Virus record (IMG/VR): IMGVR_UViG_2563366930_000006
Span: 1-39,600 of that record
Reading direction: 5' to 3' (one strand)
Source of the DNA: a virus
Taxonomy: Duplodnaviria > Heunggongvirae > Uroviricota > Caudoviricetes
DNA length: 39,600 nucleotides
Shown: one piece after another, positions 1-19,006 of the stretch
How the letters are laid out: each line of letters starts with the position of its first letter
Position numbering within the stretch: the first letter of the stretch is position 1
Made by a program: the position numbers and the translations under genes
Notes under the pieces: generated by a model
Told to the model about the DNA's origin: nothing
What the model saw: the letters and a program-made list of their open reading frames with translations, nothing else
The model's database searches: none

Positions 1-2955
1 TTAGTGCTTCCCTTCTATTAAGTCTAACCTAGCTTTTATTCTTTCTATTTCTCTGCGCTGCCATGCCGCCTCGATATAGAATAAGAGATCAGGTCTGACC
101 CCCCATCTAGATCCTGCTGGCGTTATTTCAACGCGCTCAATGATGTCTTCCATTACCATCACTGGATTATCATCCTCATCAACAATGATGCTCCCGTCAT
201 TATCAGTCAGCGGCATTTCCCTTTGGCCAGTAATGACGTCATCATATACTGCGGGATAATCGTCATAGCAAAGAAAGGCATATCGGCATGTTGTGCTTTC
301 TTCTTCCATGAGTCCGTGAGAAATAAGAACATCACGAAGTTGCTGCGCGATTACACCATGATGTATCCTCGCCCCTTCTTCCCCCTTTATAGCGACAGCG
401 TTCAGCCATTTATAAGCGATATACCTGACGTCACCCCAGGCATCCAGCAATGCTTCGTCAGGAGAGACCGGCTCTGTCTTTAATGTTCCGTCACTGGTAA
501 CCACAGGATTGGAGCCAAGATAAACTGTCGAGAACCTGTTTCCCGGACCACCAAGAGCATTTACATTATCAAGATAAGGTTTAACATCTCCGTTCTCAAA
601 AAGATGTTCGAGTGCGTTATATACCGCGCGACGTGGAGTACTGCTTCCGGAACCATGCAACGTTATCATTGCACCATCTGCTGAAGACGTTGTTTCACCG
701 CCGCTAACGATTAATCTCTGAGCGGTAACATCATCAGACGGTACTTTCTTCGCAATAATGGCGTAATTACCCTCAAGTTTGACTTCCGCGCGAACTTGTC
801 CTGATGTACCTGCATGGACAGTCAGTGACTGGACGGCAACATCATCTGTGAAATCAACGGGTACAGGAACCGTCCTCACGCCTGACGTCGACATAAAAGT
901 AGGAAGCGTTCTGTTAGGAGTGGCTCCGTAGACAAAATCCCTTGAAACAAATTCTTCCTGTTTAATTTTCACCCTGAAACAATACAAATCAGCCGGGTGA
1001 CCATCGTGAACATAAGGATATTTTCTGTTGTTATCCCCTATGCTCCATGGGTTTAGAAAGTCTTCCCCACCGAAAATGTAGTACAGCCAGTTGTCTTTGA
1101 TACAAACTGAACCAACACCAACCGCAGAGTTAACTATTCCGCCCTGATAAATCTGATCAGTAACATTAACCCACTCTACATTATCCAGACTCCACTCATT
1201 GACGTTAACTCTGGTCATAAATGTTCTTGGATAATTTCCTGCATAACGGTTATCAGGTTCTCCTCCTTCCCACTCACCAAATGCGCGCTCACTGCCAAAA
1301 ATAATCAGCTCATCGCCAACTTTGGCAAAAGGAAGGTTTGAGTGATGAACATTATTTGGGAAGCGAAGAGAATTCCATGATGTACCTAAATCAGAGCTTC
1401 TGTGCAATGAACTACCGGGTTGAGTACTTAATGTCCCCCTGGTCGTCAGATACAGAATGCCATCATAATATTTTACACATGGCTCAGATGCATTCGCCTC
1501 ATATTCTACAGGTATGCGTCTGCGAACAAAGCTACCAGGAGAACCGAAAGCATCAGAGAAATAGAGTATCCCAAGCTCGCGTGGATCAATATCACCATTA
1601 TGGTAGCCAACAGCAAAACTGTTATCGCTAATCGTCGCAAAACTGTGAATCTCAGTAACAGGAGTGCTTCCGTCAACAAAAGAAGGAATAGTTCCAAGAC
1701 TGGTTTTTCTCCATGGTGACGAGTGAAATGATGTACCAAAACTCCAGTATCTACCCTCGTTATTCTGATCCACATCCTGGGTATTTTGCGTCGTAACTGT
1801 AAAAGTATTTTTATCAATAACAGTAGTCACCGTCATATTCCCGGTAACACCTGTAACACCAGAGTTTGAGAAGTTGACAAAATCACCAGCAAATAATCCG
1901 TGATCAGTAATGCGAATATAAGCGACTTGCTGATTTGCTGCTTTCGTTATACCACCATAAACGCGAAGGCTGCGACTCATTGGGCGATCCCACAACTCTG
2001 CAACCTGCAGTTTATTTCCGCTCACGGTCCGCGTCTCAATTACAGCAAAAAGGCGATTTCTGACAACCCCCATACTCATGCAGTGATAGTTAACTGTGGG
2101 ATAGTTTTCATGTAAATCTGTAAGCCATTCCGGCGTTGTCCAGGTCTTCCCGTCATCTCCTGAGCGAACCCATGCAACATGGAGGTTATTTACACCATGG
2201 CGGTCTCCAGCCATAAAAGGCGCATAGATGACATTGTCATATACAAACGTTTTATCCTGCGTCCAGGCGTTGTACCACGGTGTATCTGTAATTTTAAATA
2301 ACTCTCCCTGGATAAAATCTTCAGAAGCATAAAAAAGAGGCTGACCCGGTATTCTCTCAAATAAAAAACGAGCATTTTTAAATCGACTGACATCTGGAAG
2401 AGTTGATACTTTAAAAGTAAGCCCTCGCCCATCTATCTTTTCACCACCTGTTGCAACAGAAAGTAATTCTGATAGAGCTGATGTATCATCATGAACACCA
2501 TCACCAATAGCCCCCCAACCTCTTACATCATAACTGTCTCTCCATCTTGCTATCTGAAGTTTTGGGTATTTATTCGCTCCATCTGGGTCTTCTAATTGCT
2601 GCCGTAACTGATCAGGATCATACTTCAGCACATTAGGAAAATAGAACTGCTGTGTACCATACGCATCATAAACAGCCATAGAATGGCCTTGCACGGTTAC
2701 GAATTTGGCAATCTGTCCGTTATATACCGGATATCCAGCAGCGTTAATGATGATTGGTTGCGAAACAGGAACGTGAGAACCGTTTTCGTTCTCCACATAA
2801 ACCTGAATCTGGTTTTCAGGATTTACAGGGTCAGTATCAATTTTACCGATATAAATTTTGCCATTGGCATTTGCTTTAAACGAGCGAGCTAAAGTAAATA
2901 ACTGACTTGGTTGTGAAACAACTACGTTGTATAATTGTTCTGGCATAATAAACAT
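1..2955 (-). CDS. Tailspike protein with P22-type N-terminal head-binding domain and C-terminal intramolecular-chaperone (S74-like) domain
   Basis: 984 aa ORF; N-terminus [37 protein letters not shown] resembles the P22 gp9 head-binding domain; C-terminal ~150 aa resembles the autoproteolytic chaperone of endosialidase-type fibers; stop TAA at 1-3. Confidence 0.9.
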
Positions 2956-2968
2956 TCCGGAGAAAATA

Positions 2969-3469
2969 ATGAGTAAGAGACGTCACGAGGTAGTAACTCG
3001 GGAGCGCCTTATGGAGGTTCTCGATTACAATAAAGAAACAGGAGTTTTCACTTGGAAAAAGAAATTAAGCGCCAGAGGTGCTGTTGGGAAAGTTGCTGGC
3101 ACAATTTCTTATGGATATAACGCAATTAATATTGATGGCGTAAGATATTTTGCACATAGACTTGCCTGGCTGTATGTATATGGCGAATGGCCCAAACAAG
3201 AGATTGACCACATTGATAGAAACAGAAGAAATAACGCAATCTCAAACCTTAGGGATGTCAGCAGAGTCGTAAATGCATTAAATGTCGGACCTCGAAATAG
3301 CAATGCTGGAATCAAGGGGGTAACTTTCTGTCAAGCCAGAAATCAATGGCAAGCTCAGATAAATGTCTCAGGTAAAAACATAACCCTTGGGAGATTCAAC
3401 ACCATTGATGAAGCGGCTATAGCTTATAAGGCAGCAAACATGGTTGCTGACCATCTGTTGAGTAGGTAA
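2969..3469 (+). CDS. HNH homing endonuclease with C-terminal AP2-type DNA-binding domain
   Basis: Motif [18 protein letters not shown] (HNH) followed by [40 protein letters not shown] (AP2-like); ATG at 2969 in the ORF frame. Confidence 0.75.
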
Positions 3470-3611
3470 TGTCTGTCATTTAATTTGCTCCAGATACAAG
3501 GAATCGCCGCAGCATGGCTACGGTTGATGTTTGTTGCATACCGAAATGGTACGATTGTTGATTTGTACAGTAGGTTTTACGATGCCATTCCACCCATTTG
3601 GTGAGGCATTG

Positions 3612-3869
3612 ATGATGTACAGCAAATACGATGAGGCGCAGTTCCACTTGAGGCTTACGCACGAGTTGCACGCTAAGATTAAGCAGCGTGCAAAAATGAA
3701 TAACAGGTCTATCAATTCCGAAATTGTGGCTACGATGGAAGAATCACTCTCCAAACCATCACCTGTAAGCGGGTATCGTGATGAAGAAGAGAGGTTGGCC
3801 TCATTAATCTCGGAGCGAGTAAAAGAAGTTGCGGCTGATATCCTTAGAAAAGAAAAAACCCGCGATTAA
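3612..3869 (+). CDS. mnt: Mnt-like ribbon-helix-helix repressor
   Basis: NNRSINSEIVATMEESLSKPSPVSGYRDEEERLA resembles P22 Mnt; GGTGAGG RBS before tandem ATG ATG at 3612. Confidence 0.75.
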   Translation: MMYSKYDEAQFHLRLTHELHAKIKQRAKMNNRSINSEIVATMEESLSKPSPVSGYRDEEERLASLISERVKEVAADILRKEKTRD

Positions 3870-3880
3870 GCGGGTTTAGT
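3853..3880. terminator. Bidirectional intrinsic terminator between convergent genes
   Basis: Stem CCCGC/GCGGG with loop GATTAA, A-run on one side and T-rich tract on the other; the mnt stop codon lies in the loop. Confidence 0.6.
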
Positions 3881-3883
3881 TGG

Positions 3884-4105
3884 TTAGTTATCAAAAAGTC
3901 CGTACGTTTCTTCTTCTTCAGGTGTAAGGGGAAGAATCTCTACTCTATCTATAGATATCTTTTCAATGTACCCATGAGGTCTACTTAAAATTAAAGCTCT
4001 CTCATGCCACAGAACTCCAAGAATGTGATACCTTCCAGCATCGCCTTTTACCCTGGCTCTTCCTTTGATTCTTGGCGGCATAATGCCATATTTTTTCTTT
4101 GCCAT
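3884..4105 (-). CDS. Hypothetical 73 aa protein, translationally coupled to the upstream gene
   Basis: ORF with ATG overlapping the upstream stop by one base (TAATG); followed by the bidirectional terminator. Confidence 0.45.
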   Translation of the reverse strand: MAKKKYGIMPPRIKGRARVKGDAGRYHILGVLWHERALILSRPHGYIEKISIDRVEILPLTPEEEETYGLFDN

Positions 4106-4833
4106 TATGCAACATTACTCCCATGAATCAGGTGTTGTAGTGCTTTAACACCTTCCTCATTGTAGCGGAATGCTTCCACCTGTTTGCTGGAATGCGCAGA
4201 TTTATCCAGGAAGAACTTCCCGTACTGCTCAGTTTTGAGGTTGTTTGCGTTAGCAATGCGACCAATCTTGTTGGCCGTTACTCCAAGCTGCTCTGCAACC
4301 TCCCCTGCTGAGTAGTAATGCTCTTCTATTGCTGGAAGAGGTATTGCATTAAAACCAACGATCGGGTTGATTATGCTTGCTGCCGCAGTCTGCTTTGCTT
4401 CCGGCGCAAGATTTGGCATCAAATCGAACAGATTGGTAACAGCTTCAACCGTCATTTTCAATGTTCGCGCCTGGCGATACTCAACAAGTCCACTAGACGA
4501 TTTACCGCTTTTAATGTGCGCTTCTTGCATACTTTCAAGTTGGTCTACAAGTGAGCGGCGAACAGCTTTAGATTCACGAGCAGCCACTCGAAGGGCTTGC
4601 TTAATTGACATAACAACTTTTTCAGAAGTTGTCTTGTTTGATTTTTGAACTACGAAAATTTCGTAGTGCTCACCTTCAAGTTCATCCTTAATGCGTGCAA
4701 TAAAGTCGTTATTGCGGACTTCTTTTTCCCCGCACTGTCTACGAGCATGATTGACCATCTCTAACAGGTACTGGCTATCAATGGTTTTATCCGTGACAAC
4801 GGATCCGATGTTTGCTACATTCTTAAAAGTCAT
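4105..4833 (-). CDS. Antirepressor-like protein with C-terminal KilAC-type domain
   Basis: C-terminal YSAGEVAEQLGVTANKIGRIANANNLKTEQYGKFF resembles the KilAC domain; ATG at 4833 with AAGGAA RBS; upstream in-frame codons judged non-coding. Confidence 0.6.
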   Translation of the reverse strand: MTFKNVANIGSVVTDKTIDSQYLLEMVNHARRQCGEKEVRNNDFIARIKDELEGEHYEIFVVQKSNKTTSEKVVMSIKQALRVAARESKAVRRSLVDQLESMQEAHIKSGKSSSGLVEYRQARTLKMTVEAVTNLFDLMPNLAPEAKQTAAASIINPIVGFNAIPLPAIEEHYYSAGEVAEQLGVTANKIGRIANANNLKTEQYGKFFLDKSAHSSKQVEAFRYNEEGVKALQHLIHGSNVA

Positions 4834-4902
4834 TAGGCATTCCTTATGTGGTAGTAAGGGTGTGACATAGGCCGCCAGCAGCACACTGGCGGTTTTCTTT
4901 TT
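4829..4902 (+). ncRNA. Candidate sar-like cis-antisense RNA (copy 2) over the start and RBS of the KilAC-domain gene
   Basis: Extended -10-like TGCTACATT at 4813-4821, then a canonical intrinsic terminator (stem GCCGCCAG/CTGGCGG, then TTTTCTTTTT) at 4871-4902 on the strand opposite the gene. Confidence 0.35.
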
Positions 4903-4921
4903 GCGCCGTCCGGCGCACCAA

Positions 4922-5548
4922 TCAATGAATCCATTCCTCGCCGCGCAGTTTTGCCAGCATTGGCTGAGCGTTCTTTACGACAAAATTGTTGGTATCAAGA
5001 TTCTTCATTTCACGAAGAAGTGATTTCTTGGTTTCTTCTGACATGTAGCGAGTCTCATATGCAATATCGTAAATCCTTCCTGAAAGCTCAGAACCAATTT
5101 GCTTCATTCCTGGGTAGATGTGTTTGCACATTTGTTGACTCTTCTCCATCCACAATTGTAAGTAGCAGAGATTAACCAGTTCTTCGTCAGTAAACTGTTT
5201 TGCAATCGGTGAGCATTCTGCCTGCCGATCCAAAATATCCAGCACCCAGCGGCGGAACTCTTTGGCTACCTGAGTGCGAGCAAACATCGCGATTAGGTGG
5301 GCACCGCGTAGTGAGAAAACACGCACTTTTTTGCGATAATTTCCTGAGGTACTCACTTCGAGTACCTGAGTCATTCCGGCGCTAAACTCATCGCTATACT
5401 TGTTATAAATCATTGTTACTGCACGACTATTTGCGTATTTAAGTGCAGATGCAATATTAGATGATGTAAACCAAACACCATGCATATCACGGGTGGGCAC
5501 CAATTCAACTCCGTGGAAGTTGTAATCTGATTTTGCTACAATATTCAT
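4922..5548 (-). CDS. ant: Antirepressor with AntA/Bro-N-type domain
   Basis: N-terminal region FHGVELVPTRDMHGVWFTSSNIASALKY typical of AntA-like antirepressors; ATG at 5548 with AAGGAAA RBS; sits downstream of arc. Confidence 0.7.
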   Translation of the reverse strand: MNIVAKSDYNFHGVELVPTRDMHGVWFTSSNIASALKYANSRAVTMIYNKYSDEFSAGMTQVLEVSTSGNYRKKVRVFSLRGAHLIAMFARTQVAKEFRRWVLDILDRQAECSPIAKQFTDEELVNLCYLQLWMEKSQQMCKHIYPGMKQIGSELSGRIYDIAYETRYMSEETKKSLLREMKNLDTNNFVVKNAQPMLAKLRGEEWIH

Positions 5549-5625
5549 GTTAGTTTCCTTGCATACGGTTACTGACATAGAGGCCCGGTTTGTGTTCACG
5601 CACTGCCGGGCTTCACTATTTTTAC
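5549..5625 (+). ncRNA. sar: Candidate sar-like antisense RNA (copy 1) covering the ant RBS and the arc-ant intercistronic region
   Basis: Extended -10-like TGCTACAAT at 5534-5542 directly antisense to the ant start; stem GCCCGG/CCGGGC at 5582-5610 then T-rich tract; same architecture as P22 sar. Confidence 0.4.
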
Positions 5626-5795
5626 TGGGCATTAGCTCTTTCCTCTCTCAGGCTTTTAGCCAGTCGCTGCACAATCGCAGAGTTGATAGAAATTCCATCC
5701 ATTTCAGCAACACGTCTAATCTCCTCCTTCATTCGCGCTGGCAAACGAAGCTGGAAACTTTGACTTTTACGACCTGTGTAAAGCACATCTTTCAT
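5622..5795 (-). CDS. arc: Arc-like ribbon-helix-helix repressor
   Basis: 57 aa; SQSFQLRLPARMKEEIRRVAEMDGISINSAIVQRL is an RHH fold; GGGAGGA RBS before ATG at 5795. Confidence 0.75.
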   Translation of the reverse strand: MKDVLYTGRKSQSFQLRLPARMKEEIRRVAEMDGISINSAIVQRLAKSLREERANAQ

Positions 5796-5822
5796 AAGTA
5801 ATCCTCCCACAATGATACCAAC

Positions 5823-5838
5823 TTGGTTCTAGAACCAA
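5823..5838. promoter_or_regulatory. Perfect 16-bp palindrome TTGGTTCTAGAACCAA in the divergent arc / mnt-like promoter region; candidate RHH operator
   Basis: Exact inverted repeat read directly in the 111-bp divergent intergenic region. Confidence 0.5.
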
Positions 5839-5906
5839 TTTAACACCATTTATTTTGATGTCAAGTTGGTGCTATTGTTTAGCGAACATCTTTACGTTGA
5901 GGTCAT

Positions 5907-6227
5907 ATGAGCAAGTTCCCTAGTCATGAAATGGATAGGTTCAATATCAGGCTTCCTGCAGGAATGCGGGATGCTATAGCTGAACGAGCCAAACGTAACG
6001 GCAGATCAATGAACTCAGAGATTGTTCAGATACTGGAAGATGCCTTGAATGCAGAAAATACACTCGGGGAAATAGCAGATAAAATCAACAGCGTCTCGGT
6101 TCCGCTAAATGTTGATGCGCTAGTTCAACTTCAAGCCCAGGTTATCGCCATGCAAAAAGAAATACAGGAAAAGTTCAGAGAGCAGAACGAAAAGTTGAGA
6201 GAACTGCTAAACAAAAAAACCACCTGA
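5907..6227 (+). CDS. Second Mnt/Arc-family RHH regulator with C-terminal coiled coil
   Basis: RFNIRLPAGMRDAIAERAKRNGRSMNSEIVQILEDAL is an RHH motif; divergent from arc as mnt is in P22. Confidence 0.7.
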   Translation: MSKFPSHEMDRFNIRLPAGMRDAIAERAKRNGRSMNSEIVQILEDALNAENTLGEIADKINSVSVPLNVDALVQLQAQVIAMQKEIQEKFREQNEKLRELLNKKTT

Positions 6228-6245
6228 CGGTGGGTTAATTTTTGC
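6216..6245 (+). terminator. Possible terminator after the second mnt-like gene
   Basis: Stem CCACC/GGTGG with the stop codon in the loop, T-rich tract 5 nt downstream; non-canonical spacing. Confidence 0.35.
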
Positions 6246-6260
6246 CTTTTTTGGACCATA

Positions 6261-6289
6261 TTGACTACTCATAAAATGAGATCAATATT
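6261..6289 (+). promoter_or_regulatory. Candidate promoter for the YjzC-like gene with a palindrome CTCATAAAATGAG in the spacer
   Basis: TTGACT at 6261-6266, inverted repeat CTCAT-AAA-ATGAG at 6268-6280, A/T-rich -10-like hexamer near 6283-6289. Confidence 0.3.
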
Positions 6290-6325
6290 TAATCGCCCAA
6301 TAACGGGTGCATGTTGAGGTATATC

Positions 6326-6505
6326 ATGGCGAAAAAACCAGGTGAAAACACAGGAAAAAACGGCGGAATATACCAAGAAGTTGGCCCGCGCGGAGGTAAG
6401 AAAGACAATTTTGCCACCGTCAAGGACAACGAAAGGCTTCCGCCAACAACAAAGCCAGGTCATGGCTGGGTATTAGATAAGCGAACTCCAGACAGCAAAA
6501 AGTAA
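6326..6505 (+). CDS. YjzC-like small protein (59 aa)
   Basis: KPGENTGKNGGIYQEVGPRGG...RLPPTTKPGHGW fits the YjzC-family pattern; GAGGT RBS before ATG at 6326. Confidence 0.55.
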   Translation: MAKKPGENTGKNGGIYQEVGPRGGKKDNFATVKDNERLPPTTKPGHGWVLDKRTPDSKK

Positions 6506-6511
6506 TAATCA

Positions 6512-6533
6512 AGCCGGGTCACTCCGGCTTTTT
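6512..6533. terminator. Intrinsic terminator after the YjzC-like gene, overlapping the stop of the convergent HExxH gene
   Basis: Stem AGCCGG/CCGGCT with loop GTCACT then TTTT. Confidence 0.5.
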
Positions 6534-6884
6534 GATATGTCGCTCGCAGAACTCAACAAGCCTGCTCATTAAGTAGCAGTAAGTCTCGTTGGCTCTTCCT
6601 GGTTCAACATCAACGCCGACCCTTGAGCAGATATCGAATGCCATGTGAGCGCACTCATGGGCAATAGTAGATAGTTTGCCATTGAACACACCTATCACAT
6701 GCAAAACACCATTCTCGCTGCTCATTGTATGAGACGCTCCGTTGGCATCCGAGTCCTGCACGTCCACGCCAAGTTTTTGATGCAGGCGTTGCCATTCTGG
6801 AAAGTCTCTGCAAAACACAATTGTACCGCTCTCAAAGAGCGGAACGAGCATTTTTGGTACGTTTCCAATGTTAACTTTTTTCAT
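6519..6884 (-). CDS. HExxH-motif protein, possible ImmA/IrrE-like (M78) metallopeptidase domain
   Basis: 121 aa; segment NGVLHVIGVFNGKLSTIAHECAHMAFD carries an HExxH motif in a context resembling ImmA-like peptidases; the family assignment is tentative. Confidence 0.45.
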   Translation of the reverse strand: MKKVNIGNVPKMLVPLFESGTIVFCRDFPEWQRLHQKLGVDVQDSDANGASHTMSSENGVLHVIGVFNGKLSTIAHECAHMAFDICSRVGVDVEPGRANETYCYLMSRLVEFCERHIKKPE

Positions 6885-6914
6885 GGTATCCTGCTCAAAA
6901 CTAAGGAGGTTGGT

Positions 6915-7142
6915 GTGAAGCGATGGTTCCTCATAATTACTGTTTTCGCGATCATTTACACTATTTTCCCTGCGTTAAAAGCACCAATGCAAATAATTTC
7001 GCTAGCAATAATTGCAATTGGTGCTTTCATTGCAGTAGCCGTACTTGTGTTTAAGGTTTTAAAGTTTTTAGTTTGGCTATCAAAAGATGATGGATGCAAA
7101 GTTCATCAAGAAAAAGAAGGCAAAATAACCAAAGTTGACTAA
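6915..7142 (+). CDS. Small predicted membrane protein (about 75 aa, two hydrophobic helices), GTG start
   Basis: Strong RBS TAAGGAGGT before in-frame GTG at 6915; hydrophobic stretches WFLIITVFAIIYTIF and IISLAIIAIGAFIAVAVLVF; no competing ORF on the other strand in this gap. Confidence 0.4.
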   Translation: MKRWFLIITVFAIIYTIFPALKAPMQIISLAIIAIGAFIAVAVLVFKVLKFLVWLSKDDGCKVHQEKEGKITKVD

Positions 7143-9262
7143 CTGTCACTAGCGAGCCATGTAATAATCCCCGTGCGGGCAATGGTTTTTGCTTCATCTG
7201 TTGATAAGGTTTTCTCCCATCTCTTAAATGCCCCAGATTGCATCAGTTTCCTTTCTATTACGCGTCTCACTTCTGCTCTGTCTACTGGTGCGTTTTGCAG
7301 GCGAAATAGCATTGATTTAAACTCAGGAGAAGACAGTAGAGCATCAGCAGCCTTTATCCTGCTTGTTTTCCCTGACATCAATGCTGACGTTATCACCCCT
7401 GTTGCACCTACACCAGGAAGACCAGATAAGCTTGTAATACCTTCCGCCGCAGCAGCTTTTGAGGCTATTCCATAAATTTTTGCGAGACTACCCTTTTCTT
7501 TCAGAAAGTTATTAACTTGCTGATCCACAAGGCTGCTAGCATACTGCTTACCAGTATTGAGTCTATTCATAGCCTTGGCTGCTTGATAAATCGTATCAAG
7601 GCGCTTTGATGCATCTGTGCCAATAGCATCACGGAGAGCCTTCATATTGGCCCCATTGCGTGACATTCCGTTATACCATTTTACAAATCCATCAACCCCT
7701 AATTGCTGACCTGGTGATTTAGCATAGCTGGTAAATGCTTTATTCATTGAGGTGAGCGCAACTTCCTGCCGCATATCCTTTGGAATTGACTTCATTAATT
7801 GCCTAAAGTCACCACCGTTTCCTTTTGCCATATTAACAACGGCACTTTCAACTTTTGGAATTGCTGATTGCTGAAGTTTTCTACCCAAAACGGTTACGGC
7901 ATCATCTTCAATGGATTTTCGTGTTTTTACCAACTCCTTACCAAGCGTCCATAACTCCCCTGCGCCATATTTTTCTGCGACAGCCTGTTGGTCATCTGTT
8001 ATAGCCGCATATAACTTTTTAAGAACACCTGTTTCTTCATCCTTGAATGGGCCAGAGCCTTTGCCAATAGCTTGCCCAACCTGCTTTCTAGCGAGATCTA
8101 AACGCCCATACGTTGGCAAGGTGTTTGGATCAAGTCGGTTCAATGTCCGCTTCATTATTGGAGATAATTCATCAATTCCACCTATATCATCAGCAAAATC
8201 CTCTAAAAAATTCAATGTATTAGTTGCCTCAATCCGGTCTCTTACAGGAACCTTTTCGGCAATTTTGTTGTAGATGTTATCTGACTGATTTTGTAATGAT
8301 GAAATGGTTTTATCAAAATTATCTGCAAGCCTGTCAGAAACCAGTTGCTTATCAAGGCTTCCCCCAAATGAAGTTATCATTTCATCAGCTTTTCTTCCTA
8401 ATTCAGTAATAAAACGCTTATGCGCCTCACTAATCTCTGTTCCAGGGAGACTTGCCACTGCATTATCAAGAGCCCTGACAGCAGGATTATTAGAGATCAT
8501 GCCTGGAGTGGCATAATTTTCCAGTTCTAGCTCACGAATAGCATTTATCGCGTTAAAATCAGGATTAACTTCATCGGCGAAATCTTGAATAGCTCGTTGC
8601 CCGCCGATAAATTTATTGTCCATTGCGCCAGCAGCTTTCTTTAACGTTGCTTTAGATGATTTACTACCCATCCCTACGGATGAGCGATAAATATCTCCGG
8701 CACTATTTTTAATTTTTCCTGCAATCTTCCCAAGCGCTGGACCAACAATCTCTGCTACAGGGCCAGCCACAGCGCCAATAGCAGCTCCAGAAGCAACATC
8801 GCTATTTGTTCCATTGGCTACAATAGCCCCTTCTCCAGCACCAAGCCCTGCGGCGGCAGCCAGCCTTGCCGCCCCTTTCGGAACCTGAGAAATAATCCCA
8901 CCACCACTAACAAATGGCGCTGCTTGTCCAACAAACTCACCAACATCTTGTGCGGTTGATGGTTTTGCCGCTAACTTCTGCTGTAGAGACTGAATTGCGG
9001 CTTGCTCTTCTGGTGTCATATCCTGAAACAGGCCAACACCTTTACCAACATCCATCAATCCACTGAGAACGCCATACATAAAACGGTCGAAACCGTTAGC
9101 ATTATTAACAACATTTTCCTGTCTGGAATTTTCCTCTGGTGAAACCAAAGGAGATTGCTGCTGTTCTGGTTGGGAATCAAGCACAAAGCCATCAGGAAGT
9201 TGTGAGTTATCAGGCTGTTCATCCAGAACAAACCCCTCTGGTAAACCTACATTGGTTGCCAT
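7139..9262 (-). CDS. Ejection / DNA-transfer protein, gene 16 position
   Basis: 707 aa ORF last in the 7-20-16 ejection-protein series; Gly/Ala-rich central region; assigned by position. Confidence 0.65.
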   Translation of the reverse strand: MATNVGLPEGFVLDEQPDNSQLPDGFVLDSQPEQQQSPLVSPEENSRQENVVNNANGFDRFMYGVLSGLMDVGKGVGLFQDMTPEEQAAIQSLQQKLAAKPSTAQDVGEFVGQAAPFVSGGGIISQVPKGAARLAAAAGLGAGEGAIVANGTNSDVASGAAIGAVAGPVAEIVGPALGKIAGKIKNSAGDIYRSSVGMGSKSSKATLKKAAGAMDNKFIGGQRAIQDFADEVNPDFNAINAIRELELENYATPGMISNNPAVRALDNAVASLPGTEISEAHKRFITELGRKADEMITSFGGSLDKQLVSDRLADNFDKTISSLQNQSDNIYNKIAEKVPVRDRIEATNTLNFLEDFADDIGGIDELSPIMKRTLNRLDPNTLPTYGRLDLARKQVGQAIGKGSGPFKDEETGVLKKLYAAITDDQQAVAEKYGAGELWTLGKELVKTRKSIEDDAVTVLGRKLQQSAIPKVESAVVNMAKGNGGDFRQLMKSIPKDMRQEVALTSMNKAFTSYAKSPGQQLGVDGFVKWYNGMSRNGANMKALRDAIGTDASKRLDTIYQAAKAMNRLNTGKQYASSLVDQQVNNFLKEKGSLAKIYGIASKAAAAEGITSLSGLPGVGATGVITSALMSGKTSRIKAADALLSSPEFKSMLFRLQNAPVDRAEVRRVIERKLMQSGAFKRWEKTLSTDEAKTIARTGIITWLASDS

Positions 9263-10587
9263 TGTCCGTTCCTGTAAATAATTTTCTGACCAGTTTTAGG
9301 ATTTTTCGCGGTCATACCTTCTCGAAATGTTTGACCGCCAGATGTTGCTTGTTGTGTCTGTTGTTGCGCAGGCTGCTGAATATCTTCATACAGCTTGGCT
9401 TTTCTGGATTGCAATTGCTTAGTTAGTCCGCTGGGGAGAGAATCTCCATAAGTTGAAAGATAATCATCCATTTGCTGATTAAACTTTTCGCCTTCAGTAT
9501 TTGCCATCAGTTTTGAGGTGTTGATTAAGTCTTGGACTTGCTCATTATTCAGCATCTTGCCGTTAGATAATTGGCTAACATAGTTACCAAGTGTGCCGAA
9601 TATTCCATCAGTGCGTTTTACCTGCACTTGCTCACCTTCGCGTACCACAGATTGCGGATCCAGCGATTTCATATAGTTGAAAATCATTCCCAACTGCGCG
9701 GCTGGAGTGTTGCGCTTCCCAAGGGCTTGTAGGTTGTCAGAAGCACTGCGCATTGCAGAATAATTCTTTGAGAACCCATTAATATCACTATTCAGATCTC
9801 GAACAAGTTTTGGGTCAATCTTTCCGCTTTCCTGTTGTTTCATCCCTAATTCCTGCAACTTCAGGGCTACGTTATCATTATGCATTTGTGCCCGCTGAGC
9901 CCTGTCTAGTTGAGCGTTTTGGATATTTGCCCATCCTCTCGCGTTCTCCATGTCAGCCTGACGGATGCTTTCATCCAATCGCCCTTTCTCAAGTTGGCGA
10001 CCAGCCATCTTGTCCTGAACATTGAAGTAATCAATCGGACCAAGAGCAGCCATTCCAAGGTGATCAACAAACTCACCAAATCCTGAAGGATTCTGCTGAT
10101 ACATCTGAGCAACGTTATTAGGGTCAACACCGACGCGAGTCAGTTCCCTGGCGTTGTTTTGCAGCCATGATTGCATTGCTTCTGGAGACGATGCTGCAAG
10201 ACGAGCGCCAGCCGCTAAGGTGCCAATAGAATTGCGCTGGTCTTCATCAATGAATCCCATGCCTTTACGAACAGATTCAATCTGGTCTGGATATTGAGTA
10301 GCCAACTGACGCAAAGCACCACGATCACCAGACGAATAGGCATTAGCGTATGCCTGCTGAAATTCTTTCTGCCGCTGAGCCTGCTTTTCCTGCTGAAACA
10401 CCCCCGCAATACCTGAAAGGCCTTGCAAAGCAGTCAGCCCAACATTGTTAGCGCCTGAACGCTCAATATCATTGTTCTGCCTGATAAGCTGAAGCGTATT
10501 GCCGATGTCATTTACGCTCGGAGCGTTTGAGTTGACGCCGCCGATACCAGCCAACAATCCGCCATTTGATCCTTGCCAAGTAGCCAT
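9247..10587 (-). CDS. Ejection / DNA-transfer protein, gene 20 position
   Basis: 446 aa ORF between the gp7-like and gp16-like genes; assigned by synteny. Confidence 0.65.
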   Translation of the reverse strand: MATWQGSNGGLLAGIGGVNSNAPSVNDIGNTLQLIRQNNDIERSGANNVGLTALQGLSGIAGVFQQEKQAQRQKEFQQAYANAYSSGDRGALRQLATQYPDQIESVRKGMGFIDEDQRNSIGTLAAGARLAASSPEAMQSWLQNNARELTRVGVDPNNVAQMYQQNPSGFGEFVDHLGMAALGPIDYFNVQDKMAGRQLEKGRLDESIRQADMENARGWANIQNAQLDRAQRAQMHNDNVALKLQELGMKQQESGKIDPKLVRDLNSDINGFSKNYSAMRSASDNLQALGKRNTPAAQLGMIFNYMKSLDPQSVVREGEQVQVKRTDGIFGTLGNYVSQLSNGKMLNNEQVQDLINTSKLMANTEGEKFNQQMDDYLSTYGDSLPSGLTKQLQSRKAKLYEDIQQPAQQQTQQATSGGQTFREGMTAKNPKTGQKIIYRNGQWQPM

Positions 10588-10596
10588 GATTACCCC

Positions 10597-11292
10597 TTAA
10601 AACAACGAGCCAAGCAGGCCAAGTCCGCCGCCAATTGCCGCACCTAATCCAGTGCCAAGTCCGGGAACAATAGAGCCAAGAGCAGCGCCAGTCATAGCCC
10701 CTGAAGCTCCGCCGCTAATTGCTGTCTGAAGGCCTGATGGTTTATTGGCGTTAGCAGCGGCAAGTGCTGCGCTTTGCTGCGCAATGCTGCTCATGTTGTT
10801 GGCGTATGTCTGCCCGGCGTTCGCCTGACCTTGCAGCGCACCAAGGCCAATGTTTGCCAGATTGTTGTAGTTGCTCATCTGGTTCGACAACCACGACTGA
10901 CCGAGAGTCGGGGCAATCGTGGCCAGTTGATTGCTTGTGGCTGTCGAGCCAAGTCCCCCCGTCGCCTCCGCAGCAGCAAGACTCTGGTAACGAGCCTGGC
11001 CTGCAAGGTCTTTATACTGCTGAGAGTTATAATACTGATTAAGTGCCTGCCCTTGGCCTTCTAAACTGGAAAGATTCTGAAGCTGGTTAACATACTGCTC
11101 CGCAAGCGGCGTGAACGGAGCAAGGTTTTTCATGATCGTCTGCCACTGCTGATTTTGCAGGTCTGCGGCATACTTCTGAGCTTCTGCTGCATACTTTGCG
11201 CTTTTATCAGAACTGCCACCTTTCCCGCCTTTTTCAGGGTAATAAGGTTCCTCGCCGCGCAGTTTTCTGCCCAGCTTAAATGCATATAACAT
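10597..11292 (-). CDS. Ejection protein gp7-like
   Basis: N-terminus MLYAFKLGRKLRGEEPYYPEKGGKGGSS resembles P22 gp7. Confidence 0.75.
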   Translation of the reverse strand: MLYAFKLGRKLRGEEPYYPEKGGKGGSSDKSAKYAAEAQKYAADLQNQQWQTIMKNLAPFTPLAEQYVNQLQNLSSLEGQGQALNQYYNSQQYKDLAGQARYQSLAAAEATGGLGSTATSNQLATIAPTLGQSWLSNQMSNYNNLANIGLGALQGQANAGQTYANNMSSIAQQSAALAAANANKPSGLQTAISGGASGAMTGAALGSIVPGLGTGLGAAIGGGLGLLGSLF

Positions 11293-11294
11293 GG

Positions 11295-11750
11295 CTATCT
11301 CCCGTGCTTCAGGAAGTCGATTAGTTCTTCGCGTGTGGCGCTGTAAAACGTCACGTCATCCACGCCTTTGAAGTATTTCTTGATGGTTCCTACACGCTTA
11401 AGGCCAATCATTGCGCAGTACATCTGCCCGTGGCGGAATTTGCGTGCAGCGAACGATGTGACGCACTGAACGGTGGTGTTAGTCAGAATGTATCGCCAGA
11501 ACGCCAGCCCGATTTCCTTGCTGAAGCCGCGAATCTCTGGCAGGTACATGGCGTGGCAATCAAAGGTCAGCGGCTGAATCTCCTGATAGTAAACAATTCC
11601 GCCGAACTGCCCGTGCACGTTCACCTCAAAGTAACGGCATTCAGGTTTGTAGTCGTATCCATCACCGTTGTTGCTCCCGGCGATAATGTCAGGGTGATTT
11701 CCTACGGCTTCTATCAGGTCGATGTTTCGCGTTGGTTTGAATGTAATCAT
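11295..11750 (-). CDS. gp14-like head assembly / DNA stabilisation protein
   Basis: 151 aa ORF between the tail needle and gp7 genes, as gene 14 is in P22. Confidence 0.65.
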   Translation of the reverse strand: MITFKPTRNIDLIEAVGNHPDIIAGSNNGDGYDYKPECRYFEVNVHGQFGGIVYYQEIQPLTFDCHAMYLPEIRGFSKEIGLAFWRYILTNTTVQCVTSFAARKFRHGQMYCAMIGLKRVGTIKKYFKGVDDVTFYSATREELIDFLKHGR

Positions 11751-12451
11751 CAGTCAATCAGCCCATGTAATCTAAGTGCCGTTTCAAGCGCCAGAATACG
11801 CTGCCGCGCCTGCTGCAAACCTGTAGCGAGGGCTGCGACTTCGGATTGTGTGTACGTAGTGCCGACTGTGTATGACTGGTTAGCGTTGAATGAGCCAAGA
11901 AGAGGTGTACCTGTGGCTGCAGTCCATCCGGTATTTCTTGCTCCAACAACCTGAATTCCATCAACTGAATATGATGTTTTTACATCCAGCGGTGACGCAA
12001 GAGACTGCAATTCTGTTACGGTTTTCGATACGTAATCACTCTTAATGCCAGAGACATCGTTTTCTACGTCATCCAGTCTTTGGTCAACAGTGACCAGATG
12101 CCCCTGAATATCGATAACCTCATCCAGCAAGTAATCAACATCGCTACGCAGTACGACTATCTTCCCTTCGGCGGTTGTTAACCTGACCTCAAGGAGATTT
12201 ATCGCTTTTGTGTTTGCGGTGATTCTTGCGTCGTGATCAGCCAGTTCTACGTCCTGTTCATCGTTTTTTACCTGGGCATCGTAAGCGCCCTGACCAGCCT
12301 GATTTGCCTTCCCAGCAATTGCACCGACATCAGCTCCCTGATTTATGACATACAGCAGGTAAGACTGGCTGAATATATTGCGTGGCAAAATTGAAGCATC
12401 AAGGCGCGTAGCCTGAACCACGACAGGATCATTCAGTGATGAATCAACCAT
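11750..12451 (-). CDS. Tail needle protein gp26-like
   Basis: 233 aa; [29 protein letters not shown] and C-terminal [22 protein letters not shown] resemble P22 gp26. Confidence 0.9.
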
Positions 12452-13869
12452 TACTCAATCCTTATCTGGCAGCCTGAGAGAGTGACAGGTGACTTAGTGA
12501 TAACGCGCAATTTGAAGCCGACATTTTTCCTGATGCGTCCGACCCGCTTCCACAAAACGCGTTTGTCGTAAACGAACGGTTCATTCTGCTCAATCATCTG
12601 CTCACGCCCGTAATTGATGCCGTCAGTGGTTGCAGAGAGAAAAAGGCGGTCAGCATACTGCGCAACTCCAGTTGACGATTCAACTTCAAGGTCGAAAACT
12701 CTGGCGTTATCCGCTTTGAACAACGGAGTAAACAGCAGGTGTTCCTGCTGCTTGTCGTACTGGCTGCTGATATCGAACTGCAATTTCCCGGTCACGGATT
12801 CCAGCTTATCGCCGCACGTTATCTGATTGCCTTCGTAAATGAAGTCGATAGCGCGGTACACATCGTCATACAAGCCAGTTTTCAACACACACCATTGCGA
12901 ACCATTGGCGCTTGAAGATGCGTCGTACACGAGAACATGGCGCGGAAGGTGGATAATCAGCAACTCATGAGCATCAAATCGCAGCGATTCCATCACACCA
13001 TCAGCCAGTTCATCAGCAGTGTAGGAGCGGAGGATTTTCTCAATGCTCGCGCTGGCGATTGGTGACACCTGACCGGAACCGATGATGTACACAGACGGCG
13101 CACCTGTTGCCGGATTGCTGATGAACGCATACGAATCAGCAAACGGCGTTTTGCAGTAAGTCCCGGCAATGCCTTTCTGCACCATCAGCGATGGCTGTGC
13201 GACATACAAAGCAGCACCAACTGTGGTTGCACCAGTCAGGGAGAAATATTCAATCGTCGATGAGCCAAAGCAGACGATGAAGTCTCGCCATGTTCCGATG
13301 CCGATGATGCCGTCAGGCTGTGATTCTGCCCGATATTGTGCGCTGTAGCGGTCAGGATGCGATTCGTCTTCAAGATCAGTGATAAACCATGAATCAGTAC
13401 CGTCTTTTGACCACGCATAACGCCCACGTAAGCGAGTAATGTCACGAACCGAACCTAATTCATACTGCGTAAATCCGCTGTCTGCAGGCCAGTTTGAGAC
13501 GGTTTTAACCGTGCCATCATAGCGATACTCGAAAAGTTGACCATTAACGCCTACCGCCTGTGATGTCCGACCATGCGCCATTGATACGCGACCACTTCCG
13601 GCAACATCACCGACTTCACTTTCTCCTTTGTACAGCTTGCCACCACACACGCGATAAACAGCATTCTGCGCCATGTTGTACTCGACGCCTCGAGATACAC
13701 CGTTCACATCAGAACGTTTTGCAATGCCCGGGAATGAGCGAAGATATCCGCTGCTGTTAAGGATTTCTTTGGGTGTAGCCAACATATTTACTGGCAGATA
13801 GTCGATATAGTCGGCGTTTCGAAAGTCTTTGCCGACACCTTTCATAAGCGGAAGTTGCTGAATCGGCAT
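12451..13869 (-). CDS. Tail hub / head completion protein gp10-like
   Basis: 472 aa; [49 protein letters not shown] nearly identical to P22 gp10 as recalled. Confidence 0.9.
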
Positions 13870-13878
13870 TTATTCACC

Positions 13879-14340
13879 TCACGTACTCGGATCATCTTTC
13901 TCGATGTAAAACCGATTCCACGTAAACGCGCTTTTGTTACCACTACCGCGAGGCATGTCATTTCGTCGCTCAAGTGGTGGTATTTTGGTTAAAGCGATAC
14001 AGATTGTCTGATATGCACTGTCAGCAGCGGTAAGGAGAGCGTCTGACGGCTGAATGACGTTATCCATGCACACTTGCACAGCGAGTTTCAAAGCGACGCC
14101 ATCATTTGCCCATGCAGGGATACCTGAATCATCGTCAGGTAACGGCATGATGCCGTTTTCTGTATCAGCAAACTGATACCCAAGCTCGATACCTTTAGCC
14201 TGCCATGCTGCCATCATGTCTTCGAGGTCATTAATGGCATCTTCAATTGCCTGAGGGTCAGCATCTGTCAACGTGGCATTGGAATACAGCCCGGCTTTTC
14301 GTAAAGCCTTAAGAACGAGATCACCCTTCGTTTTCGCCAT
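13879..14340 (-). CDS. Tail accessory factor gp4-like
   Basis: KTKGDLVLKALRKAGLYSNATLTDADPQAIEDAINDLEDMMAAW resembles P22 gp4. Confidence 0.85.
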   Translation of the reverse strand: MAKTKGDLVLKALRKAGLYSNATLTDADPQAIEDAINDLEDMMAAWQAKGIELGYQFADTENGIMPLPDDDSGIPAWANDGVALKLAVQVCMDNVIQPSDALLTAADSAYQTICIALTKIPPLERRNDMPRGSGNKSAFTWNRFYIEKDDPST

Positions 14341-14509
14341 CTTCTTCCGCCTTAGCCACTTTTTGCTTCGTTGCGGTTTCTTCAGGAGTTTTTACCCAGC
14401 CTTTTTTCAGGTGAGATTTAACTTCTTCGTCATCAACAATGATGTAATCGACAGCAAACTGACCACAGGTGATCATGTTGCCAGGCTTATAGAGCATTGT
14501 TCGTGCCAT
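14321..14509 (-). CDS. Small hypothetical protein between the coat and gp4 genes (63 aa)
   Basis: ATG at 14509 preceded by GGGAGAAG RBS; the longer ORF start at 14548 would include the terminator hairpin. Confidence 0.5.
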   Translation of the reverse strand: MARTMLYKPGNMITCGQFAVDYIIVDDEEVKSHLKKGWVKTPEETATKQKVAKAEEDGENEG

Positions 14510-14520
14510 TGTCTTCTCCC

Positions 14521-14546
14521 AATAAAAATGGGGCCGAAGCCCCACC
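14521..14546 (-). terminator. Intrinsic terminator immediately after the coat gene
   Basis: Minus strand reads UGGGGC-UUCG-GCCCCA then UUUUUAUU, directly after the coat stop. Confidence 0.55.
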
Positions 14547-14550
14547 AAAA

Positions 14551-15804
14551 TTACTGCCCGGCAATAACGATGCCCGTATATTCAGGAACCAGTACAGAGC
14601 AACCGTACAGAGTGGTGAAACGTGCAGTGGTTACGCCTTTGATGTGGTCGAAGGCGTAAGACATGATCAGCGTAGCGCCCTGCTCGGTGGTTGCTGTCAT
14701 TACCTGTGGCCCCTGACCAGTCGGGAATGCCAGTTTGCCGTACATCAGTTCAACAGAACCATCAGCCCAGAACAGGTTAGCCGGTGCGGCATTTTTGTTG
14801 AGAATGGTAATTGCTGCACCATTTGCCGCGTTAGCATCAACGTTTGCATATGGACGGCTGGCGACATCCGCGTTGTCAGGCGGCAAAATTTTCGGGGAGA
14901 TAGTTACTGTCGTTCCGCTAACTGCCAGAACGCGGAATACCTGCGGCTGCCCGGTGGTGTCTTTGGTGATCTGGTGTACAGAATTCACCCCTGCAATGGT
15001 AAATGCATCGCCAACCTGCAAACCAGATGCAGATACCGTAATGGTCCCCTGTCGGTTATCCACTGGCATATCGTTGGCGTCTTTCGCTTCAACCTTGTGC
15101 GCAGGTTCGGCCGCCAGCGTAATGGAAGTCGCAGTCCCTTTCGGAACACGACCAGAAATATCGGTCTTGTAGCTATCAAAGGAAGCAATCGGAGGGATCT
15201 GCGCTTTTTCGTATGCTGTCAGGGTTGCGCCCTGAGCGTAGGCACGGTGACCAAGCTCGCCAGCAAGGTCTTTGTAGTTGAAGGGGTTCCAGAAAGAGCG
15301 ACGGTTGATACCCTGCGGTACACCAATCGCCGTCATGGTGGCATCAATACCTGCCGCACAGTTCCACAAATCACGGCCCTGTGAACCAGTGGTTGAGTCA
15401 GCCATTGTGATCACGTTAGTAGCACGCTGCGTGACCATGGAAATCAGGTCAGAGTCAATCTGTGCAGCAAGGCGCATACCTGCGGCGCGACCAGCTTCAG
15501 TTTTATGTTCCGGGTCACGCATTTCACGCGCATCCAGAGTGTACAGAATGTTTTTAGGCTCCTTGAACACAGAAGGAACAAGGCGCTGAACCAGTGCTGT
15601 TGGCGTTTTGCTGCTGAGGTCGAGGCCTTCCTCAATGTTCATGTGGTAATGCTGCGGACGATACAGAACATCACCTGCTCGCTGCATTGCTGTATCACCG
15701 GGACGGAATTTTTTAGCGTTACGGGAAACTACGCAGGCGGCCTCAAAGCCTTCAACGTAGTTTTCGAACATGATTTCAAGGTCTTTTGCTAATTGGTTAG
15801 CCAT
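14551..15804 (-). CDS. Major capsid (coat) protein, P22/Sf6 type
   Basis: 417 aa ORF in the coat position with P22-coat-like length and composition. Confidence 0.9.
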   Translation of the reverse strand: MANQLAKDLEIMFENYVEGFEAACVVSRNAKKFRPGDTAMQRAGDVLYRPQHYHMNIEEGLDLSSKTPTALVQRLVPSVFKEPKNILYTLDAREMRDPEHKTEAGRAAGMRLAAQIDSDLISMVTQRATNVITMADSTTGSQGRDLWNCAAGIDATMTAIGVPQGINRRSFWNPFNYKDLAGELGHRAYAQGATLTAYEKAQIPPIASFDSYKTDISGRVPKGTATSITLAAEPAHKVEAKDANDMPVDNRQGTITVSASGLQVGDAFTIAGVNSVHQITKDTTGQPQVFRVLAVSGTTVTISPKILPPDNADVASRPYANVDANAANGAAITILNKNAAPANLFWADGSVELMYGKLAFPTGQGPQVMTATTEQGATLIMSYAFDHIKGVTTARFTTLYGCSVLVPEYTGIVIAGQ

Positions 15805-15822
15805 GCTTAATGCTCCGATAGG

Positions 15823-16716
15823 TTATTTTTTTGCCTTTTTAGCGGCGAAATACGGCGTCCAGTCACCAGTTTCCAGCGCCTTGGCTTTCAATTTGTCGAG
15901 GTTGTTGATTACTGCGCCGTTGCTCCCCTTAACTGTCGGGGTTGTGGCTGCCGTGGTTTTTGCTTTTGGCATGATTCTGGCCTTCGATTCGATACGTTCC
16001 AGCAGACGACCAATTGCTACGGGGTTGGTAGCTTCTGCCAGTTGCTTGCGCAGTTCAGCGTTGCGACCGAGTGCCAGAACAACGATTTCCGGCTTCTCTG
16101 ACTCAAACAGGATCGCGTTTTGTGTCTCGATGGGGATTTCCTCGAGTACGGCCTGTTCTGCTTCCTGATAGCCAGGAACCTTGAGAGCCTTAACACGTTG
16201 CTGATATTTGGATAATCGCTCTTGATAGGCAGCCTGAAGCTCCTGCTCCTTCTGCTTGCGAGCTATCTCCTGTTGCTGGTACTTGCCGTTATCCTCTGCC
16301 CACTTAGCCATGCGTTGCTGATAGATTTCTTCATCGAAACCGATGTCCTCATCATCCAGTTTTGGCATTCGCGGTGGTTGAGTGATTACCGGCTGCTGCT
16401 CGACGGGTTTCTGAGACTGACGCATCAGCTCTTTCAGCTCGCGGTCTTTCTCTTTAATCGTCTTGCGCAGGTGTTTTACCAGTCCATGCTCTGCGCTATC
16501 TTCGCTGGTTGGCGAATCCAGCTTTTCGTCACCAAAGTAGAATTCCTGTTCTGATTCGTCGTCATCAGTGTCAGTAGCTTCCTCTGCATCATTTCCTGAG
16601 GACTCACTGCCATCTGCTGTTTCGACTTCTTCAGCCAGTTCGACATCATCAGGAATCTGCTCTGACGCGTCGGTTTCGATTTCAACTTCTGGTGTGTTTT
16701 CTGCCATCTGGTCCAT
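15823..16716 (-). CDS. Scaffolding protein
   Basis: Highly acidic N-terminus, coiled-coil-rich, between the portal and coat genes. Confidence 0.8.
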   Translation of the reverse strand: MDQMAENTPEVEIETDASEQIPDDVELAEEVETADGSESSGNDAEEATDTDDDESEQEFYFGDEKLDSPTSEDSAEHGLVKHLRKTIKEKDRELKELMRQSQKPVEQQPVITQPPRMPKLDDEDIGFDEEIYQQRMAKWAEDNGKYQQQEIARKQKEQELQAAYQERLSKYQQRVKALKVPGYQEAEQAVLEEIPIETQNAILFESEKPEIVVLALGRNAELRKQLAEATNPVAIGRLLERIESKARIMPKAKTTAATTPTVKGSNGAVINNLDKLKAKALETGDWTPYFAAKKAKK

Positions 16717-16806
16717 TTGTTACCCCTGTTTACTCGATGTTCAGCCCATCGGAAGGCAATAGGGTGCCAGGCCTCATAAAGACAGCCATTGCACGTTATG
16801 GGTTAA

Positions 16807-19005: not shown

Positions 19006-19006
19006 A

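Follow-up and report, generated by a model that had tools for sequence, protein, structure and literature searches.

Antisense control in phage P22's immI region, where the small RNA sar acts on the antirepressor gene ant, is a textbook case, and its paradigm is one antirepressor and one antisense RNA. The present analysis concerns the corresponding region of a 39,600-nt stretch of DNA (IMG/VR record IMGVR_UViG_2563366930_000006, positions 1 to 39,600; hereafter the window), which is a P22-like (Lederbergvirus-type) Escherichia coli prophage. Two plus-strand elements face a minus-strand operon in it: copy B, over the start of ant, and copy A, over the start of the following gene (gene 2), which is very likely a second cis-antisense RNA unit. 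As far as the accounts in PMC2629481, PMC12197685 and PMC12111858 go, sar pairs with the ribosome-binding site of ant and blocks the translation of the Pant and Plate transcripts; the primary work (Liao et al. 1987, Wu et al. 1987, Schaefer & McClure 1997) is cited in PMC2629481 and PMC12197685.

Small phage RNAs which keep an antirepressor off by pairing around its ribosome-binding site are also known from c4 of P1 and P7 and from the CA/c4-like RNA of N15, and in the c4 family immunity specificity is defined by sequence variants (PMC12197685, PMC3632133). c4 differs from copy A in being processed from the same-strand leader of its ant operon and in acting in trans on repeated target sites; it is no convergent cis-antisense RNA driven by a promoter of its own inside the target gene. 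The OOP RNA of lambda and P22 and the P22 sas RNA resemble copy A as short lambdoid cis-antisense RNAs with a constitutive promoter and an intrinsic terminator, lying over a regulatory gene. However, OOP lies over the cII/c1 3' end and acts via cleavage by RNase III, the effect of sas is a switch between translation starts in sieB, and neither is situated in immI or over the 5' untranslated region (5' UTR) and ribosome-binding site of an antirepressor-type gene. With P22 sar, copy A shares the design principle and the presumed mechanism, namely the cis-antisense block of a ribosome-binding site. It differs from sar in having no detectable sequence or covariance-model relationship to it, in a conserved -35, in a -10 placed 9 nt (24 nt in one subtype) from the CAT instead of 3 nt, and in covering the start codon itself. 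Furthermore, it lies between ant and gene 2, over the gene 2 start and not at the arc-ant junction, and would target the gene downstream of ant in addition to sar, without replacing it.

We consider it probable that the plus strand of this immI-type operon holds two cis-antisense genes for small RNAs, independent of each other, and that the RNA of copy A silences the translation of gene 2. The identification of copy A as an antisense unit is based on the conservation of its promoter at synonymous sites, on the strand-specific covariation of its terminator and on the linkage of the unit to the gene start. The likeliest account, drawn from these comparisons of sequences, is that copy A represents an RNA family which is sar-like but separate from sar and which would block the translation of a second antirepressor-like gene.

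The extended -10 of copy A (TGCTACATT at 4813-4821, plus strand) is located 9 nt inside the gene 2 ATG (complement of 4831-4833). With TGn followed by TAnnnT, a -35 at 17 ± 1 nt and purifying selection on both, it has the make-up expected of a sigma-70 extended -10 promoter. The predicted RNA covers the gene 2 start codon, the complement of the Shine-Dalgarno (SD) sequence, TTCCTT (4840-4845), and nearly the whole spacer between ant and gene 2. An enclosing stem, GUCA/UGAC, spans 4829-4866 and is followed by the terminator, GCCGCCAG-CAGCACA-CTGGCGG (4871-4892), whose ten-pair stem leads into the T tract TTTTCTTTTT (4893-4902). The sequence-only reading had pointed to a canonical terminator at 4871-4902 on the plus strand, and this is indeed the top-ranked terminator-like site among positions 1-20000 of the window. 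The T tract follows the stem on the plus strand only; a GC-rich stem kept by covariation and a plus-strand U tract are the features of an intrinsic terminator. An inner stem of stem-loop I, CCUUAU/GUAAGG, is not claimed since it is missing from the consensus fold, and weak Rfam matches to Hrs13 and SgrS at copy A (E <= 10) were rejected as structural look-alikes.

Since the copy A promoter lies in coding sequence, its conservation was examined at synonymous sites. Gene 2 relatives were collected from 80 viral loci. In 18 diverged gene 2 starts, GTGACA, TGCTA.A.T, the CAT, the terminator stem and the T tract are invariant, and the promoter spacer and the 5' UTR are free to vary; the arrangement of GTGACA, a 17-nt spacer and the extended -10 is invariant in all 36 distinct gene 2-type starts. 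Across 11 gene 2 coding sequences, whose proteins are 67-86% identical, the third base is invariant in no more than 16 of the 236 degenerate codon columns. Of these 16, five fall in the -10 codons 5-7 ((AAT|ACT)(GTA|TTA)GCA, read as TGCTAnAnT on the other strand) and in the -35 codons 12-13 (xxT GTC, read as GACA), and codons 8-11 and 14-15 show three to four different third bases each. The hypergeometric probability of this five-codon invariance is ~7e-7 with the whole gene as background and ~0.003 with the first 22 codons, which are more conserved.

An equivalent promoter was found in a second, unrelated gene family. In phage SPN3UB the gene after ant encodes an unrelated ORF6N-domain protein, and its start carries TCGACA-17-TGCTACATT with the same terminator. 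Eighty loci of this ORF6N family yielded 45 distinct start regions and 54 distinct coding sequences. In 45/45 starts GGATCGACA-17-TGCTA(C/A)ATT is kept and the terminator is of the same family. Invariant third bases occur in 8 of 248 degenerate columns, six of them in the codons of the -10 (N-[V/L]-A) and of the -35 (xxT GTC GAT), and the nearby invariant residues P24, V25 and R32-V34 use three to four different third bases. Taken over both families, xxGACA-17-TGCTAnAnT is found in all 81 distinct start regions (36 of gene 2 type and 45 of ORF6N type). A conserved promoter inside coding sequence offers a clean case of dual constraint on synonymous sites.

The strand on which the structure acts was addressed with 48 distinct sequences pooled in one alignment. 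In the copy A family the terminator helix is 99.8% paired, with four pairs changing on both sides, and its covariation score of 0.299 exceeds all of 500 shuffles (500/500) and every slid control. One terminator pair is CG in 27 sequences, GU in 17, GC in 3 and AU in 1, and one pair of the enclosing helix (helix 1) is GC in 19, GU in 12 and AU in 8. On the mRNA strand, a plus-strand G·U pair would turn into C·A; strand-specific G·U pairs together with a strand-specific T tract therefore show that it is the antisense transcript in which the structure is selected. A covariance model of the copy A family (R1) scores 27-93 bits in all related loci.

Furthermore, the unit travels with the gene start. 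The terminator stays with it in at least five contexts that differ in upstream sequence and upstream gene, and the unit heads three unrelated gene bodies, namely PHROG 1726 (gene 2), ORF6N and Rha-type. An ORF6N head subtype beginning MTSLNLA…, with its UTR and terminator, forms the same cassette on some gene 2 homologues (L083, L086). When viral contigs were scanned for the cassette by pattern, at least 120 stretches were returned; among the 80 of these which were read, 41 head ORF6N genes, 35 gene 2 relatives and one a Rha-type gene. Upstream of the cassette, at a distance of 0.6-1 kb and on the same strand, there is a sar-family gene in almost all of the gene 2 loci taken as representatives, in 36/37 representatives of ORF6N type, in E. 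coli HS and in the Rha-type locus, which gives a recurrent layout of arc - [sar] ant - [A] second gene. Of 5426 complete E. coli genomes, 77 contain copy A, HS and 55989 among these. Neither Rfam 15 nor the RefSeq/GenBank annotation of the examined records contains a second antisense RNA beside sar, and the literature searched, an incomplete selection, makes no mention of one and describes only the single sar of P22.

Several loci depart from this layout or extend it. In the Rha-type locus (IMGVR_UViG_2684622997_000003, L191:7642-7720), the head MLTANLAVQSEVVT… carries GTGACA-17-TGCTAAATT, its terminator is of the same family, and 8368-8440 holds a sar copy. IMGVR_UViG_3300045988_074162 (L010:4873-6301) holds two tandem immI modules: downstream of its gene 2 module there follow a P22-type arc, an 89-aa open reading frame (ORF), a P22-type ant and a second sar at 5299-5370. 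Klebsiella phage phiKp_30 (L003:3930-4065) has lost ant except for ~30 nt at its 3' end and has kept the complete A cassette, and E. coli HS (L087:2458-3121) retains the cassette beside a gene 2 truncated by an IS3 element. In the gene 2 relatives of Stx2a-converting phages (H84-H121) and in L074, L075 and L078 the first 4-10 residues of similarity are gone and the upstream region is different; these relatives, one of them annotated 'Roi', apparently lack the A cassette.

Copy B is the element that corresponds to sar itself. In the P22-pbi record Psar, the sar RNA and t-sar are annotated at the arc-ant junction, and copy B matches this sar column for column, through TTGCTAnAnT-ATT-CAT-GTTrGTTT at the 5' end, TTACTGACA in the middle, the GC hairpin, CTTCAnCT and the T run. 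The whole element including its promoter spans 5534-5623 on the plus strand. Its -10 (TGCTACAAT) lies within ant, 3 nt in from the ATG (complement of 5546-5548), and this 3-nt register between -10 and CAT is kept in all sar-family copies. Stem-loop I (5549-5576) contains the anti-SD sequence TTCCTT (5555-5560), and the terminator hairpin (5580-5614) with its U tract ACUAUUUUU overlaps the arc stop. The same two stem-loops are seen in copy B, P22 sar and the Rfam consensus, with 5' GUUAGU pairing with ACUGAC, the anti-SD in stem-loop I and the terminator as stem-loop II, and compensatory changes occur at six pairs across five sar-family members. Copy B and P22 sar are alike in their position, in an extended -10 within the first ant codons, in a start just past the ATG and in a terminator over the arc stop; they differ in that copy B is too diverged for the Rfam model. 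RF00262 (gathering threshold 43 bits) did not detect copy B at threshold in the window or at E <= 10 in 4600-5900, and the same library gave 96 bits for P22 sar and 48 bits for SPN3UB sar. A symR match at copy B (E 0.33, in the Rfam search at E <= 10) was rejected as a structural look-alike.

Two further covariance models, R2 and R3, were made for the sar family. R3 was built from 13 other sequences at the ant starts of other loci, none with the terminator type of the window, and copy B was left out of it to avoid circularity. Its sole significant match in the 39.6-kb window is 5549-5623 (37.6 bits, E ~1e-5). On the strength of this match, the alignment with P22 sar and the shared fold, copy B is identified as a diverged sar-family antisense RNA gene over the ant ribosome-binding site, of a known kind which current libraries miss. 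The RefSeq annotation of E. coli HS and SBF22 has no non-coding RNA at either the copy A or the copy B site. RF00262 detects the sar of P22 and SPN3UB only and misses the window copy, JEP4, KP12 and most of the ~60 sar-position copies recovered by our own models (examples are window 5549-5623, L001:4591-4665 and L006:3290-3361). The Rfam sar model, which misses most of its own family, is narrow, and sar is probably under-annotated in phage genomes.

The sequence-only reading had presented the two elements as homologous and as the outcome of a duplication. The strings it named were all found where it had placed them, TGACATAG at 5573-5580 and 4863-4870 and TTCCTT in both copies; its likening of the ant unit to the P22 sar arrangement was borne out by the alignment, the fold and the R3 match; and folding of both regions gave a two-stem-loop architecture (copy B: minimum free energy -33.3 kcal/mol, z -6.4; copy A: z -2.8). 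The extended -10 it had set on the ant start codon exists as TGCTACAAT on the plus strand and covers codons 2-5, not the start codon. 'Same architecture' is therefore an accurate description of the pair, and common descent by duplication is not supported. Under that explanation, which we hold to be unlikely, A and B would be copies of one sar module duplicated with its antirepressor gene and diverged since, and it can draw on the same order of motifs, on the strings TTTGCTACA and TGACATAG held in common, on the alike overall fold and on a glocal alignment with p ~0.03. Against this, pairwise alignment of A with B showed only marginal similarity, since the local score of 19, set against a shuffle mean of 15.0 ± 2.3, is reached by ~7% of 5000 dinucleotide shuffles and is not significant. 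R1, R2 and R3 each recover all sites of their own family, and no cross-detection between the A and sar families was obtained in either direction at E <= 10 in ~360 kb; the Rfam sar model likewise did not match copy A at the gathering threshold or at E <= 10. Profile cross-scores with nhmmer, promoters included, reach 6.4-6.7 bits, slightly above the maxima of 4.4 and 3.1 among 20 shuffles, and concern the promoter part only. The ant and gene 2 proteins are unrelated to each other, the -10 lies 3 nt from the CAT in B and 9 or 24 nt in the A family, and a conserved -35 occurs in A only. The shared strings coincide with functional consensus, TTGCTAyAnT being the extended -10 and TGACAUAG the 3' arm of stem-loop I with the pre-terminator linker in both predicted folds, so that the marginal similarity is explained by shared functional motifs (extended -10, CAT, anti-SD, 3' arm and linker). 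What stands of the earlier proposal is a pair of units, copy B in the sar family and copy A very likely a second one over an antirepressor-like gene; its 'recognisably homologous' segments and their duplication do not.

The remaining explanations grant copy A less. It could be a terminator only, in which the plus-strand hairpin and T tract stop antisense read-through from the convergent plus-strand genes (3612-3869 and further upstream), the hexamers being incidental and no discrete RNA being made. The plus-strand T tract after the 3856-3877 hairpin is weak (TTTAGTTGG), which makes some read-through into the operon possible, and promoter-like matches are not enriched in the region; yet two unrelated gene families have their invariant synonymous sites concentrated in the two hexamers, 81/81 distinct sequences keep a spacing of exactly 17 nt and the terminator moves with the gene start even where the downstream context is different, which renders this explanation quite improbable. 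We give still less credence to a constraint unrelated to an antisense RNA, whereby codons 5-14 and the spacer would serve a protein operator (e.g. of Arc/Mnt type) or an mRNA 5' structure affecting translation or coupling. Minus-strand folds show that the GUCA/UGAC stem and the GC hairpin are possible in the mRNA as well, and N-terminal codons are generally under extra synonymous constraint (8 of the first 21 columns). However, the G·U cells (17 in the terminator pair and 12 in the helix-1 pair) pair on the antisense strand only, the T tract is strand-specific, the five invariant codons stand out even from the N-terminal background (p ~0.003), and the conserved bases (T-15 G-14, T-12 A-11, T-7 and xxGACA at 17 nt) fit sigma-70 and not a palindromic operator. 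That copy A is a fortuitous promoter-like string beside a hairpin, with no function, is hardly credible: the 9-mer TGCTAMAWT does occur at chance level in the window (3 against 2.06 expected), but every comparative result opposes this view and the conservation data effectively refute it. The third TGCTACATT in the window (31672-31680, minus strand), inside a same-strand ORF and with no start codon and terminator arrangement nearby, is attributed to chance.

Some observations weigh against an antisense unit at copy A. The promoter scan alone is non-significant (4 sites against 6.1 expected), the enclosing GUCA/UGAC stem could equally form in the mRNA, conservation is missing from the inner part of stem-loop I, and pairing in helix 1 reaches no more than 78%. 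The anti-SD, which sar presents in a loop, is partly base-paired in the minimum-energy fold of copy A. Moreover, many of the loci are close relatives and the sequence counts overstate the number of independent events, the copy A transcript and its start site are predictions, and the antirepressor function of gene 2 is putative.

From the features of the two copies, their conservation, covariation and linkage, we infer transcription, pairing and translational repression along the following lines. Copy B would be transcribed from about G5549, just past the ant ATG; the sar family is characterised by a 68-69 nt RNA which represses the translation of ant. In copy A, the sigma-70 promoter in gene 2 codons 5-14 would fire outward across the start codon and the SD, and transcription would stop 75 nt later at the intrinsic terminator. 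On the minus strand, no T run follows the 4871-4892 hairpin or the adjoining GCGCCGGACGGCGC hairpin. With no minus-strand terminator between ant and gene 2, transcripts begun at Pant or in the late operon should continue past ant into gene 2, which would thus be co-transcribed with ant. The A RNA, fully complementary to the ant-gene 2 spacer, the SD and the start codon, would by analogy with sar pair there and block ribosome loading, and the pairing may also trigger cleavage of the duplex. Gene 2 has its own ribosome-binding site, which lies 88 nt past the ant stop and out of reach of sar, so that a second antisense RNA would give independent control, each antirepressor-like product being silenced separately.

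On a broader scale, we lean slightly towards the view that the copy A family is undescribed and widespread. It would be a portable 'gene head', made of a promoter in the first ~15 codons, a start codon, a 5' UTR and a terminator, which has recombined onto at least three unrelated antirepressor-like bodies, downstream of sar/ant in nearly all examined loci. Many immI regions would then contain two separately RNA-silenced effectors, and the variable pairing segment may define immunity-specificity classes, acting also in trans on superinfecting relatives. The comparisons suggest that, in many phages of P22-like and SPN3UB-like type with Escherichia, Salmonella, Klebsiella and relatives of these as hosts, a second RNA-silenced effector is found in the same operon, and the prediction flags gene 2 as a product which the phage must keep off.

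The gene 2 protein falls in PHROG 1726 'anti-repressor' (E 9e-101), and its relatives are found across Enterobacterales, almost all of them without a name. The sequence-only reading had called it a KilAC-domain gene. No Pfam family matched at E <= 0.01, and at E <= 10 only HTH_31 did (E 0.13), not KilAC/ANT PF03374; NCBIfam and the PDB sequence search gave no match either. The likeness holds at the level of fold and annotation: with the AlphaFold2 (AF2) model (pLDDT 72), Foldseek against BFVD retrieved viral proteins named antirepressor, KilAC or KilA (E 6.5e-10 to 2e-7), names which are themselves annotations, and in the PDB fold search only the C-terminal ~65 residues matched, to MerR/RacA/BldC-like helix-turn-helix folds. 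'Antirepressor-like' is a fair label for gene 2 in so far as the predicted fold and annotation go, and the same description is supported for the downstream genes which carry the A unit (PHROG 1726, ORF6N and Rha-type).

The immI segment of the window is 99.9% identical to E. coli SBF22, and the ant/gene 2 part is ~93% identical to phage JEP4. The minus-strand operon runs Pant, arc, ant, gene 2 and orf73, with a mnt-like gene divergent from it, and this mnt/arc/ant order agrees with the annotated P22 record; ant is of the P22 type, having Bro-N and P22AR_C domains and arc upstream. Coordinates are collected in Table 1.

Table 1. Features of the immI-type region, in window coordinates
Feature	Positions	Strand	Basis and remarks
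Copy A promoter, in gene 2 codons 5-14	4793..4821	+	Scan; -35 GTGACA 4793-4798, 17-nt spacer, extended -10 TGcTACATT 4813-4821
Copy A, predicted antisense RNA of ~75 nt	4828..4902	+	Predicted start near 4828; R1 score 92 bits
Psar-like extended -10, TGcTACAAT (TGCTACAAT), in ant codons 2-5	5534..5542	+	Aligns with P22 Psar TTGCTATACT
Copy B, predicted sar-family antisense RNA	5549..5623	+	Start inferred from the annotated P22 sar start
Gene 2, 242 aa, antirepressor-like, putative target of copy A	4105..4833	-	PHROG 1726
ant antirepressor gene, 208 aa	4922..5548	-	Bro-N E 9.5e-10, P22AR_C E 2.7e-14; PHROG 'anti-repressor Ant'; RefSeq CDS
arc-like repressor gene, 57 aa	5622..5795	-	Pfam Arc E 8e-12; RefSeq CDS of the same extent
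Pant-like promoter, TTGACA-16-TAAATT with TG	5837..5864	-	Regional top promoter-like match, 10/12; placed like P22 Pant
mnt-like ribbon-helix-helix repressor gene	5907..6227	+	Pfam Arc E 1.6e-20; RefSeq 'Arc family DNA-binding protein' in SBF22
orf73, 73 aa, last operon gene, overlaps the gene 2 stop	3884..4105	-	ORF; PHROG 4977 (unknown function); RefSeq CDS
Operon-end terminator hairpin	3856-3877	unstranded	Scan; AAACCCGCTTAATCGCGGGTTT then TTTCTTTT on the minus strand

The hairpin at the operon end also closes a convergent plus-strand gene (3612-3869), a second Arc/Mnt-type ribbon-helix-helix gene which runs towards the 3' end of the ant operon and has the terminator hairpin in common with it; its equivalent in JEP4 is annotated 'regulatory protein mnt'. 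A homing-endonuclease-like gene with HNH_3 and AP2 domains (2927-3469, plus strand) is located between the immI region and the tailspike gene. The tailspike ORF (1-2955, minus strand; 984 aa as listed) departs from that of SBF22 past the head-binding N-terminus, and this divergence from an otherwise 99.9% identical prophage fits the usual exchange of tailspike modules.

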